A stretch of DNA of 64,000 bases from Eledone cirrhosa (Eukaryota). The stretch spans positions 156,798,001 to 156,862,000 of the forward strand of contig OZ024741.1 in NCBI GenBank assembly GCA_964016885.1. The letters are read 5' to 3'. Numbering within the stretch: the stretch's first letter is position 1; the number at the start of each line of letters is the position of its first letter. Below are positions 38,968-61,533 of this stretch, piece by piece. Position numbers and translations under genes: made by a program. Below the pieces are notes generated by a model. That model did not search any database and was not told the DNA's origin. It saw only the letters and a list, made by a program, of their open reading frames with translations.

Positions 38968-39152
38968 ATATATCTATAACTTTATGTATATGTAAACCTT
39001 TATATATATAAGTTGAAATAGAATGAAACGAAATTTCATTTCTCACTCTTAGTACGGCATTTACATACATACTTATATATATATATATATATATATATAT
39101 ATATATATATATATATATATATATATATATATATATATATATATATATATAT

Positions 39153-40180
39153 GCGTTACGTTAACAAGTTATCGTTATAGGTAATCCAGTTAGAGGTTGT
39201 GAGTACTCTGTATTGTGAATAGTTTTAACGTACGGCGTTGTTTGACTCAACAAGAGGTTTCCATAGTTAGGTAGCGCGTTCGCGAGAATTCCTATGCAGG
39301 TTATTCTTGGAGTAATAATAGTGAAAGATTGAAGAATAACATGGTCGGCTGTACAAAAAGGGTTTTATTTCAAGTATTAACAATTGTTTCATTGATCAGG
39401 TGAGTCTAAAGGCCGCTAATCACTCGAAATTACGTCACTCGAGTGACTGACAGCTAATAACGGTCCATACCACTCCACTGTTATTAGCTGTCAACTAGAT
39501 CAACATCATAAATCTCCTAACCTTTCTTTCACTCTCTCTCCCTAAAGCCACATTACGATAAGACAATCAGCATGCGAGACATTTACCACACAACGCATAT
39601 ATCAAAACTCACCATCTCAATTTTTAGCCTCTATCTACTTATCTACTCCTTCTCCATCCTTAGCCCTACCCCTTATGTCTCATCCTCGTATGTCTTCCCC
39701 TCTCACTTAATTTTTAATTTATTATTTTTTCTCTTTAATCTGTCATTTTTTATTTTCTACTCTAACCCTCTGAGATTTGACCACCACGTATATATGCCTG
39801 TACTTGATGTTGCTTTTCATGTTAGTATTATCTTTACACATACACTTACTCACTACCACCACTATTATCAGCAATCGCATTCTGTACTTATTATTTTTTT
39901 GTACTTATTTTTTACATTTGTACCATCTTTATTCTATCTTCTTTACCTCTTTCTCATTATCTTTTTTTATTGATGTTATTGTTTTGATTCTCCGTTGTAT
40001 CTCTATATATACCAATGCCATATGTAAAACCTCCAGTATTCTGATGATTTGATCAGCGGTAAACACTGCATTTAAGGTCAAGTGACGCAACTTCGAGTGA
40101 TTAGCGGCCTTTAGACTCACCTGATCAATGAAACAATTGTTAATACTTCAAATAAAACCCTTTTTGTACAGCCGACCATG
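39153..40180. mobile_element. Twin-arm non-coding insertion with HHR
   Basis: 39340-39438 is inverted at 40081-40180; the left arm is ~190 nt longer; (TA)n flanks. Confidence 0.8.
40035..40147 (+). ncRNA. Type I hammerhead with large stem II insert
   Basis: agtatt-CTGATGA-t-ttgatcag...ctgatcaa-t-GAAA-CAATTG-TT-aatact. Confidence 0.78.
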
Positions 40181-40759
40181 ATATATATATATATATATAT
40201 ATATATATATATAAGGTTAAGAATGTTAACTGCAATAACAAGTGAAATAGCCAAGCAAGTATTATAATAATTAAGGTAATGGTAAACATTTGACATTAGA
40301 TTATGTAAAGAAAAGTAAGAAATATAGAAATACAAATAATAACCTGAGGAGCAGCAACCGTTATGGCTGGACATAGTCTGTTGTGTGAAGTGAACACAGT
40401 ACTTAATAATAAACAAAACAAAAAGCAATGCGAACTAATAAATGCCCTATACCAAAACAGCAAAACACATTTGTACTTGTGGAATTAATAAAATTAGATG
40501 TTAAACACAAAGCTCTACTAATAATGCAAACGACGGTAAAGAAGAATTTAAATAAGAACAGCTAAATAATTTTAATGAGTATTGTAAACACACAAAATTA
40601 GATAAATCCTACACAAATCCATCTAACTCCGCTTCTGAGTTAAATATAAATACTGAAGATACTGATAAATAAGAACAACCCAAGGCACTTCCTCGAAACT
40701 TATATAACAAACAACATAAACAATAACACAACAAATCACAATTGATTATACAGATTACG

Positions 40760-41520
40760 TAATACTTTATGGTTTAATCAACTATACTCAGTTGGACTGG
40801 AAATGAACATAGCGAAGCTGTCTTTCAAGTATGAGATAAGCGTTTCCTGAAACCACATAAATACAATAGGATATTTGATAGACATACCGCTAAACTATCG
40901 TACTTTACAACACAGAATATTACCCAACATATAGTTAAAATTAATTACAATAGCTTAAGTAAAGGACGGAACGGAGCAGATAATGTGATCGATAAATTGA
41001 ATGAACTTCACAACCAAGATACCCGGATGAATATTCGGAATACAAACAATATGCCCTCTAATGATAACATACTCCACTTAAATTCACTACATATCAAAGG
41101 CACTGTACTCTCTGAATATAGAAATAACCGCACTATTAATAGGAATTCGAATAACACCCTATCCGTATAGCCTATGTGCAACTGCAGAAACCCTAAGATA
41201 TACCTTTTCGAAAATAATTGCCTCCAAACGTATATAGTTTATGAGTGTAGCGTTATTACCAATAATAAATTGTATAAATATATAGGAGCGTCCACGACCA
41301 GATTTAAGGACAGATGGTATAGCCCTCCCTCTTTCAATAATAAATATAAACGAAAGAGTACAACTCTCAATTGATTTAGCAATTAGATCAGTGTATCCAT
41401 ATAAATGGGGCACTAATATTTGTAATTTATGTAGTAGGAAACTATGAAAAATGTTAGAAACGGGTCCAAAATTGACAATACAACTCCTGCCTTCTTAAAC
41501 TATATAAAACATATTTAAAA
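40760..41520 (+). mobile_element. Degenerate Naiad-like PLE linker + GIY-YIG fragment
   Basis: CNCRNPK..NCLQTYIVYECSV..YIGASTTRFKDRWY; upstream HTAKLSYFTTQNI. Confidence 0.8.
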
Positions 41521-58842: not shown

Positions 58843-59005
58843 ATATATATATATATATATATTAGAAAGTGAGGGGGTTTTTTTTACAAATTGAAAAATA
58901 ACCGATGTGTCCTACACGAGTGAAAGTATAAAGAAAAAGAGATGAAATCGAAAATGCAACTGGAGTCTTATTTATTTTTTTTAAATATATATATTTATTT
59001 GGTTC

Positions 59006-59041
59006 CTTTACCGGTTTCGCATTTCTTCTGCTTTTCAAAAG
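59006..59041 (-). ncRNA. Minimal hammerhead, U3-A8 variant
   Basis: ctt-TTGAAAA-gca-gaagaaa-tgc-GAAA-CCGG-TA-aag. Confidence 0.65.
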
Positions 59042-59654
59042 TAGAGCTGAGATGGAGGGTCTGTGGTTTTTCTCACATATATATATCAATTTCTGTCTGT
59101 GTGTAACCAGTTGACGTCTAAACCATTGATCCGATCCTGATAAAACTGTACACACATGTTAAGCTAATATTCAGAAACAGAACTGGCTAATTGAATTTCA
59201 ATAAAAATCAATAATAGAACCCCTGAGGACATTAAACCTTCCCTCCCACTACTCCCCTTTCTCCTCCCACAACTCAGTCCTCCAAAACGAGGCACCGATT
59301 TATTTGTTTTTTTTTTGTTCTTCATTCTGTAGAGAAAAAGAGAGCGGGGATGAGAGAGAAGAGATACGAGAGAAAGAGAGGGGATGAGAGAAGAGGGTAA
59401 AAGAGAGAGGAGGTGAGAGAGAGAGAAAGAGAGCCAACGAAAGAGAGAGGGATAGATTAGAGGAGGGTGTGAAAGAGAACAGAAAAATTAAAGCATAGTT
59501 CGATAACTAACTTTTATTTATTTATTTTTTATCGCTTGTTAACTAACTCCTTTCTTAACGTTACTTCTCTCTCTCTCTCTCTCTCTATATATATATATAT
59601 ATATATATATATATATATATATATATATATATATATATATATATATATATATAT

Positions 59655-61533
59655 AAATGTAAGTATGTATGTATACGTACATACATATATGTATACAGAC
59701 GTACAGTAGCATGTATATATATATATATATATATACATACATGCAGGTACACATACATATATGCACGCATCAGTTTAGCAGGCGCTTATTATAGCGCTGC
59801 TTTGTTCGTTTGTCAACAAACTGAACAGCCTGAATTTATGCCATACGGTGTTAAGGCAACCACGTCACCTTTTTGTTCAACACTGACACAGGAACGATGT
59901 ACTAGTTTCAAGCTTGTTAGCTATCATCAGCACCGTTTACCCATCTGCCAGATAGTTGAACGTTCGAAAGTATATACTTTCCTTATGAAAATTAACGGCT
60001 GAGCAGCCTAATTTGCATATTGAGTGAGTTAAATCGGTCAGGCATACCGAATAAAAATAAGTTGAAAAAAATGAAAACGAAAAACGAAATTTCATTTCTC
60101 ACTCTTAGTATGGCACTTACTTAAATGTAAGTATGTATGTATACGTACATACATATATGTATACAGACGTACAGTAGCATGTATATATATATATATATAT
60201 ATACATACATGCAGGTACACATACATATATGCACGCATCAGTTTAGCAGGCGCTTATTATAGCGCTGCTTTGTTCGTTTGTCAACAAACTGAACAGCCTG
60301 AATTTATGCCATACGGTGTTAAGGCAACCACGTCACCTTTTTGTTCAACACTGACACAGGAACGATGTACTAGTTTCAAGCTTGTTAGCTATCATCAGCA
60401 CCGTTTACCCATCTGCCAGATAGTTGAACGTTCGAAAGTATATACTTTCCTTATGAAAATTAACGGCTGAGCAGCCTAATTTGCATATTGAGTGAGTTAA
60501 ATCGGTCAGGCATACCGAAAACAATAAGTTGAAAAAAATGAAAACGAAAAACGAAATTTCATTTCTCACTCTTAGTATGGCACTTACTTAAATGTAAGTA
60601 TGTATGTATACGTACATACATATATGTATACAGACGTACAGTAGCATGTATATATATATATATATATATACATACATGTAGGTACACATACATATATGCA
60701 CGCATCAGTTTAGCAGGCGCTTATTATAGCGCTGCTTTGTTCGTTTGTCAACAAACTGAACAGCCTGAATTTATGCCATACGGTGTTAAGGCAACCACGT
60801 CACCTTTTTGTTCAACACTGACACAGGAACGATGTACTAGTTTCAAGCTTGTTAGCTATCATCAGCACCGTTTACCCATCTGCCAGATAGTTGAACGTTC
60901 GAAAGTATATACTTTCCTTATGAAAATTAACGGCTGAGCAGCCTAATTTGCATATTGAGTGAGTTAAATCGGTCAGGCATACCGAAAACAATAAGTTGAA
61001 AAAAATGAAAACGAAAAACGAAATTTCATTTCTCACTCTTAGTATGGCACTTACTTAAATGTAAGTATGTATGTATACGTACATACATATATGTATACAG
61101 ACGTACAGTAGCATGTATATATATATATATATATATATATATATACATACATGCAGGTACACATACATATATGCACGCATCAGTTTAGCAGGCGCTTATT
61201 ATAGCGCTGCTTTGTTCGTTTGTCAACAAACTGAACAGCCTGAATTTATGCCATACGGTGTTAAGGCAACCACGTCACCTTTTTGTTCAACACTGACACA
61301 GGAACGATGTACTAGTTTCAAGCTTGTTAGCTATCATCAGCACCGTTTACCCATATATGTATGTGTACCTGCATGTATGTATATATATATATATATATAT
61401 ATATATATATACATGCTACTGTACGTCTGTATACATATATGTATGTACGTATACATACATACTTACATTTAAGTAAGTGCCATACTAACAGTGAGAAATG
61501 AAATTTCGTTTTTCGTTTTCATTTTTTTCAACC
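59655..61533 (-). mobile_element. Retrozyme-like tandem array: ~3.6 x 468-bp monomers plus inverted 180-bp arm
   Basis: Identical HHRs on the minus strand at 59894-59936, 60362-60404, 60829-60871 and 61304-61346; inversion at ~61353; (TA)n flanks; no credible ORF. Confidence 0.93.

Follow-up and report, generated by a model that had tools for sequence, protein, structure and literature searches.

Near-obligate pairing of two fixed ends in inverted Penelope-like insertions of the Eledone cirrhosa genome

The stretch of the Eledone cirrhosa genome analysed here (64,000 nt, hereafter the window; GenBank assembly GCA_964016885.1, contig OZ024741.1, positions 156,798,001 to 156,862,000 of the forward strand) is a (TA)n-rich part of a 3.0-Gb genome and is crowded with Penelope-like elements (PLEs). 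Within its (TA)n tracts lie Hydra-type and Neptune-type PLEs as well as a non-coding tandem family with a hammerhead-like motif, referred to below as the 467-bp family (Table 1). The direction of the open reading frame (ORF) and of the ribozyme indicates that an inverted insertion has a 3' end of the element on each of its outer sides, and we designate the short end as A, the long one as B, and the interval between them as the tail. An earlier note on this DNA had proposed that each insertion has one short and one long terminus, and that these ends reflect ordered priming at two defined internal sites of the RNA, one for each target strand.

In all the coding families seen, designated below by the position of a window member, the reverse transcriptase (RT) is followed by a C-terminal GIY-YIG endonuclease (EN), and the N-terminal GIY-YIG domain of Naiad and Chlamys is therefore not found among them. 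The 20271 family gave Pfam matches to RVT_1 and GIY-YIG, and examination by eye of its frames at 21807 and 23394 revealed a DKG motif, a CX4CxxC linker, and a CCHH motif in the EN; judging from these motifs it is Neptune-type, the CX2-5CxxC linker being present in Nematis as well. In the 4391 and 9818 families the YRDD and IY..YIG motifs share one frame, and the frame at 4730-6295 of the 4391 element gave no Pfam match. RLRWR and HSDKTG, which correspond to the Hydra RWK-type N-terminal motif (with an R in place of the K) and to DKT, occur in copies L270, L280, and L421, and the families display by eye a CxCX5C linker, CxxC and CxH in the EN, and no CCHH, all of them Hydra features. Both families are Hydra-type according to the motifs defined in PMC8557442. 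The 4391 family has a variant hammerhead core only, recognized by eye, and Rfam gave no match at the gathering score. As for the 467-bp family, its unit is non-coding and tandem with a period of 467 (TRF), its hammerhead core is invariant with a G-U/U-G exchange in stem I among variants, and the Rfam HH9 match (E 0.26-0.34) is far below the gathering score. With one predicted type I hammerhead-like motif per non-coding tandem unit, the family is retrozyme-like. Furthermore, the features of EN-containing PLEs, i.e. partial tandems (pseudo-long terminal repeats, pLTRs), an inverted 5'-truncated arm, and a tail at one end, were all found.

The A/B orders given by the earlier note for the 467-bp family were confirmed for all four window insertions (A-B at 59656-61533 and 45171-45537, B-A at 58056-58841 and 39011-39073), the period being 467 and not 468 bp. 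The measured A-B offsets (Table 1) are close to those proposed for each family, as with the 105 nt at 49228 for which 75-100 nt had been given, and the 40-nt offset of the 20271 element becomes 37 nt in the other copies of its family. Automatic offsets for the insertions at 58056, 4391, and 10919 were not used because internal TA tracts spoiled them, and the insertion at 25623 was read by eye.

Outside the window, 187 of 192 resolved inverted insertions pair one A end with one B end (95% confidence interval 94-99%), where random assortment would give 50%, and two defined internal sites per family, one per arm, are borne out across the families tested (75/76 in the 467-bp family, 48/52 in the 4391 family, 29/29 in the 20271 family, and 35/35 in the 9818 family). 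Samples chosen blind to the ends gave 75 A-B pairs out of 76. Ends were classed by landmarks and then checked by eye. The 116 loci of the 467-bp family comprise 29 picked by internal DNA, 38 more from all 47 exact B junctions, and 49 more from the first 50 of 639 exact A junctions. Seventy-two of them have two outward ends, that is 70 A-B pairs, one B-B pair (L051), and one B end whose partner falls at neither site (L037, not counted in the ratio), and five neighbouring insertions of the family met in passing, all A-B, are included. The ends of this family are sharp rather than scattered, A falling mostly at three positions within 7 nt and B at the same TTAT step across subfamilies, with counts that are biased by the pattern used.

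For the 4391 family, the partner end at 30 of 153 B-anchored loci was A in 17 cases and B in 4, was interrupted in 1, and was missing in 8, and 48 of 11,701 A-anchored loci yielded 31 B partners, no A partner, and 17 loci without a partner. Exact A and B junctions of this family are equally numerous (11,701 vs 11,695), and a count over 51 Mb based on positions alone gave 28 A-B cases among the 30 facing pairs that lie within 6 kb. The 29 facing pairs of the 20271 family were collected around an internal 25-mer (first 100 of 2,570 matches) and the 35 resolved pairs of the 9818 family come from 43 insertions around an internal 24-mer (50 of 26,133 matches). The second end is not resolved at 44/116 loci of the 467-bp family, 26/78 of the 4391 family, and 8/43 of the 9818 family, owing to a single arm, a nested insertion, or the edge of the fetched DNA. 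The A-B rule holds in insertions of 160 nt and of 5 kb and in near-identical young copies. Two candidates for same-end pairs, L420 (the one B-B case of the position-based count) and L251 (A-A), each turned out to be two A-B insertions, and L195, A-B from positions only, is made of two separate elements.

Table 1. Insertions and related features in the window, with the measured distance between ends A and B.
Position	Strand	Feature	A-B offset (nt)	Remark
59656..61351	-	467-bp family, A arm, 3.6 tandem units	64	site A at its outer end (59656)
61352..61533	+	467-bp family, B arm, 182 nt	64	ends at site B, 64 nt beyond A
60350..60412	-	minimal type I hammerhead-like motif, one per 467-bp unit		motif scan; weak Rfam HH9 match
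58056..58116	-	467-bp family, B arm (tail and a few bases)
58117..58296	+	copy of 56718-56897 at inner junction		1 mismatch/180
58297..58841	+	467-bp family, A arm (one unit and part)
45171..45336	-	467-bp family, A arm	48	older, shorter-tailed subfamily
45337..45537	+	467-bp family, B arm	48	older, shorter-tailed subfamily
39011..39059	-	467-bp family, B arm (tail part only)
39060..39073	+	probable 467-bp family, A arm, 10-14 nt		low complexity, less certain
4392..6589		Hydra-type PLE, A left, B right	89	5'-truncated RT-GIY-YIG frame 4730-6298, minus strand
10919..11148		short A-B insertion, 4391 family
20272..25320		Neptune-type PLE, B left, A right then (TC)n	40	RT 21807-23261, GIY-YIG 23394-23960
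9818..9978		short B-A insertion, second Hydra-type family	80
51996..52181		short B-A insertion, 9818 family	80
4090..4333		A-B insertion	60	window data only for family
25624..25686		A-B insertion, 4090 family, two ~32-nt arms sharing no sequence		by eye
34430..35470		B-A insertion	105	window data only for family
49228..50037		B-A insertion	105	window data only for family
52855..55562		B-A insertion, Hydra-like EN fragment 54520-55077	89	window data only for family
56989..57302		A-B insertion, related to 49228	70
38343..38630		near-equal ends, ~605-bp-unit family member	5	family also at 37233-38097, 48292-48958

The arms of these insertions inform on how they were made. In the 467-bp family, 20 of 67 pairs (79 curated pairs minus 12, of which 11 have a poorly placed junction and one is the B-B pair) have arms of which neither includes the other, and the same is true of 25 of 28 short 4391-family pairs; the arms share no sequence in L101, L108, and L163. 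For the 467-bp family, the inner end of one arm bears no relation to that of the other, the two lying within 20 nt in 5 of 67 pairs for 5.9 expected. Arms are closer to each other within an insertion than to those of other copies in 44 of 48 pairs (median 1.4% vs 4.1%), and therefore usually share a single RNA or source locus as their origin; in the 9818 family, the same 13-nt variant is present in both arms of 18 of 29 pairs, against 5.7 after shuffling. Such non-nested and kindred arms fit two primings on one RNA or on sister transcripts. Kinship is likewise expected from a fold-back, in which the first cDNA would prime itself, copy back, and be caught at the second site by the other end of the target; PMC3846280 interpreted the palindromes of inverted junctions as self-priming, and the arms of the 9818 family meet near-symmetrically. 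However, a fold-back requires nested arms, which the 20 of 67 and 25 of 28 pairs above do not have, it does not account for pairs without shared sequence, and symmetric junctions are not in excess in the 467-bp family, so that we regard this route as unlikely.

The inner junctions show further particularities. Inner ends cluster 55-85 nt upstream of A (19 of 28 A arms in the 4391 family) or about 57 nt upstream (9818 family, L318-L417), at a hammerhead-like hairpin region, which is probably a strong RT stop. B arms do not pile up exactly at A: those reduced to the tail are 7 of 67 in the 467-bp family, and 13 of 28 B arms of the 4391 family end at scattered points within the tail, again with no pile-up at A. 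The source of the 58117-58296 insert lies 1.4 kb away, and the insert likely reflects a template jump onto local DNA. Poly(A)/poly(T) runs of about 15-25 nt, apparently untemplated, are found at arm-arm junctions (L065:2255-2290, L131:500-530, L108:1725-1755, L330, L417), terminal pieces are reiterated between TA runs in a manner resembling aborted and restarted priming (L140:400-520, L214:1480-1560, L256, L258, L168), and at L270:1990-2070 the inverted arm switches to an antisense piece from downstream of B (the ORF start), ahead of the sense ORF.

At the end sites, an overlap of 2-4 nt with (TA)n (8 nt at one site) was found at 12 of 12 sites with known continuation, and it exceeds that of nearby break points (combined p 1.5e-4, the sites being not fully independent). 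The microhomology to (TA)n invoked by the earlier note is thus real, but it cannot by itself pick the sites: a quarter of the unit positions (119 of 467) overlap (TA)n by at least 3 nt, and something else must therefore select them. The ends do not usually fall at the stronger TA-like sites within the unit. The idea of an RNA fold common to A and B was discarded, and we put forward no such structure; the strong folding of the 467-bp unit (z -7.6) is driven by TA-rich palindromes, and the 4391 family shows none (z 0.0). After 17 of 28 Neptune-type A ends there are at least 4 TC units where the element itself has two, and the possibility of a target duplication was rejected because an adjoining TC tract is present in the far flank in 1 of 28 cases only. 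These (TC)n runs reach up to 31 units directly after A and never occur after B (L350-L397; window 25321-25346). They suggest repeated copying by slippage at the RT start, the alternative being later microsatellite growth. LINEs, too, commonly show slippage where their RT starts.

A second route to fixed ends would be resolution by the EN, which would cut the DNA intermediate of the element at TA-like sites on its two sides, one of them being A and the other B, so that the ends would be cuts and not RT starts. This explanation was put forward in PMC8557442 and agrees with the resemblance of both A and B to the AT-rich target. It does not, however, sit well with offsets that vary from 37 to 105 nt according to the family, with extra (TC)n and reiterated terminal pieces, which are not products of a cut, or with the better TA-like sites inside the unit that are seldom used as ends; moreover, RT starts were mapped directly at the tail ends of another PLE (PMC11167929). 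We hold it to be distinctly improbable. It is very doubtful that sites are used at random and that A-A and B-B insertions are then lost by selection, recombination, or assembly failure: same-end pairs do exist, but A-B pairs are inverted repeats just as long, with arms up to several kb, and the rule spans insertions of 160 nt to 5 kb and near-identical young copies. Equally hard to credit is the idea that A and B are processed RNA ends (a ribozyme cut or the transcript end) at which the RT starts, as every 467-bp unit carries a hammerhead-like motif but neither end is its predicted cut site, the core lying about 128 nt and the cut about 160 nt downstream of B, inner ends lie within 10 nt of that cut in 1 of 134 cases for 6 expected, ribozyme cleavage is dispensable in vitro (PMC11167929), and the pairing would be left unexplained.

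Taken together, we consider it probable that a dimeric RT-EN makes the inverted PLE insertions in (TA)n by twin priming, from two RNA sites that are fixed, one for each target strand, with mutual exclusion between the primers. The enzyme, likely a dimer bound to the tail, would introduce a nick into each strand of the TA tract; cDNA synthesis would begin at A from one of these nicks and at B from the other, in each case aided by 2-4 paired bases; both cDNAs would end early and then be joined head to head, and a site already used would be closed to the second primer, being occupied or belonging to an asymmetric dimer, which would yield A-B. In the twin priming of L1, both target strands prime on one RNA and the outer ends of the inversion are RT starts; the internal site used by the second primer varies there and the arms are free of overlap, whereas both sites are fixed here, 37-105 nt apart, and the arms often overlap. 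Twin priming is favoured over a fold-back because the arms often cannot be copies of each other. It is also in line with PMC11167929, where a PLE in vitro nicks and extends both strands from two start sites that bound the tail and is modelled as a dimer. No support was found for a temporal order of A and B, as had been proposed: arm lengths (no difference between A and B arms in the 467-bp family, p 0.18, with arms reaching several kb), arm side (the long arm is found at either end), and A:B junction counts gave no signal.

Several observations weigh against twin priming as outlined here. The arms of the 9818 family both end at about -57, within 10 nt of each other in 24 of 31 pairs, which a fold-back fits equally well, and 3 of 29 pairs of this family combine different common variants and are A-B nonetheless, so that a single RNA molecule is not needed in every case. 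B arms often extend far beyond A, which on one RNA needs strand displacement. The study of PMC11167929 saw no strand difference in the start site, which it describes as non-homologous to the cut DNA. Same-end pairs exist, five of them B-B and one A-A (L051, L250, L270, L271, L186, L181), L051 being the B-B pair of the 467-bp family and L250 a true A-A pair of the 4391 family recovered by a targeted look at two candidates; in the 4391 family the arms of same-end pairs diverge by 2-11%, which is not clearly above the 0-8% of A-B pairs. An origin of same-end pairs from two different templates is suggestive for L051 (5.7%) and not separable in the 4391 family. Lastly, the 38343 family makes use of a single end: of 29 other copies chosen through internal DNA, all 29 lack an inverted arm, and most have one fixed 3' end. 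The proposal that each insertion has both ends was accordingly too wide, since single-arm loci, same-end pairs, and a non-inverted family exist.

This family, which targets TA with a unit of about 605 bp (L288-L317 and the three window copies in Table 1), represents a second integration mode. Thirty end-anchored loci agree on non-inversion except for the window copy and one doubtful match, and the earlier note's sole case of near-equal ends, at 38343, thus belongs to an otherwise non-inverted family. Its copies have variable TA-flanked 5' ends, several of them at an internal TATATCATT step, and one fixed 3' end.

Elsewhere in the window, degenerate RT and GIY-YIG-like frames at 6620-8400 (+), with no Pfam match, represent an older PLE beside the 4391 element; Rfam matches to 5S rRNA and tRNA (55618-55729 and 16213-16284, both on the minus strand) are probably heads of short interspersed elements (SINEs) or pseudogenes; and a near-perfect 270-nt palindrome of a SINE-like repeat lies within another repeat fragment at 33427-33695. 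Another element family is repeatedly inserted in the internal TA-like tract of the 467-bp unit (L036, L093:570-1190, L110, L119, right flank of L270).

A wider reading, which we put forward only tentatively, is that twin priming is obligate: an asymmetric RT-EN dimer would clamp the RNA tail and start one cDNA from each side of it on opposite target strands, with telomerase-like repeat addition at A. If so, the tail would be the footprint of the dimer, its length being set by the RNA element of each family, and the inverted structure and the tail would have one cause across PLE clades and mobilised retrozymes. Repeat addition at A would echo the kinship between PLE RTs and telomerase. Whatever the mechanism, every model must meet the figure of about 97% of inverted insertions that use each site once, with arms often needing two primings, and the A/B ends give annotators a rule for PLE boundaries.

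The A/B observation is real and strong, and its core is already described: the elements and the one-sided tail are of known kinds and no new system is involved. The earlier note, which took as known an optional short 3' tail, understated the published record, since two in vitro start sites bracketing the tail are in print (PMC11167929) and a tail on one of two inverted pLTRs was described by Arkhipova 2013 (PMC3846280) and Craig 2021 (PMC8557442). How PLEs make inverted insertions and tails is presented as an open problem in PMC8557442, and the passages of PMC13282606 covered here do not mention tails. Within the literature covered, which leaves aside older subscription papers and figure supplements, we met neither a tally of how the ends pair nor a PLE model based on twin priming, nor the near-obligate pairing, the non-copy arms, the 2-4 nt TA overlap at the sites, or the extra (TC)n at A. 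The addition made here is quantitative and testable: it consists of near-obligate A-B pairing, seen in a retrozyme-like family as well as in two PLE clades, of tails longer than those published, of arms that are not nested, and of an apparent addition of repeats at one of the sites.

Compared with published accounts, the PLE tail on inverted pLTRs measures 37-105 nt here instead of 30-40 bp, is found in 97% of resolved inverted pairs rather than being optional or frequent, and probably results from twin priming, the published explanations being EN resolution or self-priming. Target-primed reverse transcription by the Poseidon element PAc in vitro (Frangieh 2024, PMC11167929) shares with our data two internal RT starts bounding the tail, nicking and extension of both strands, an AT-rich target, a dimer model, and a dispensable ribozyme. 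It differs in that the start sites were pooled and not paired per insertion, that no strand difference was seen, that PAc is of a different clade, and that its start was called non-homologous to the target, whereas 2-4 nt overlap in this genome. As for the 467-bp family, retrozymes have been proposed as non-autonomous PLE derivatives (Cervera and de la Pena 2020, PMC7229834; Li 2026, bioRxiv 10.64898/2026.07.22.740005), and non-LTR retrozymes are likewise built of tandem units that are non-coding, measure a few hundred bp, and each bear a type I hammerhead. The passages of these papers covered here contain no mapping of termini. Here the ribozyme is of the minimal type and predicted, and PLE-type inverted arms and A/B ends were mapped, which are direct anatomical support for the mobilisation of a retrozyme-like family by PLEs.

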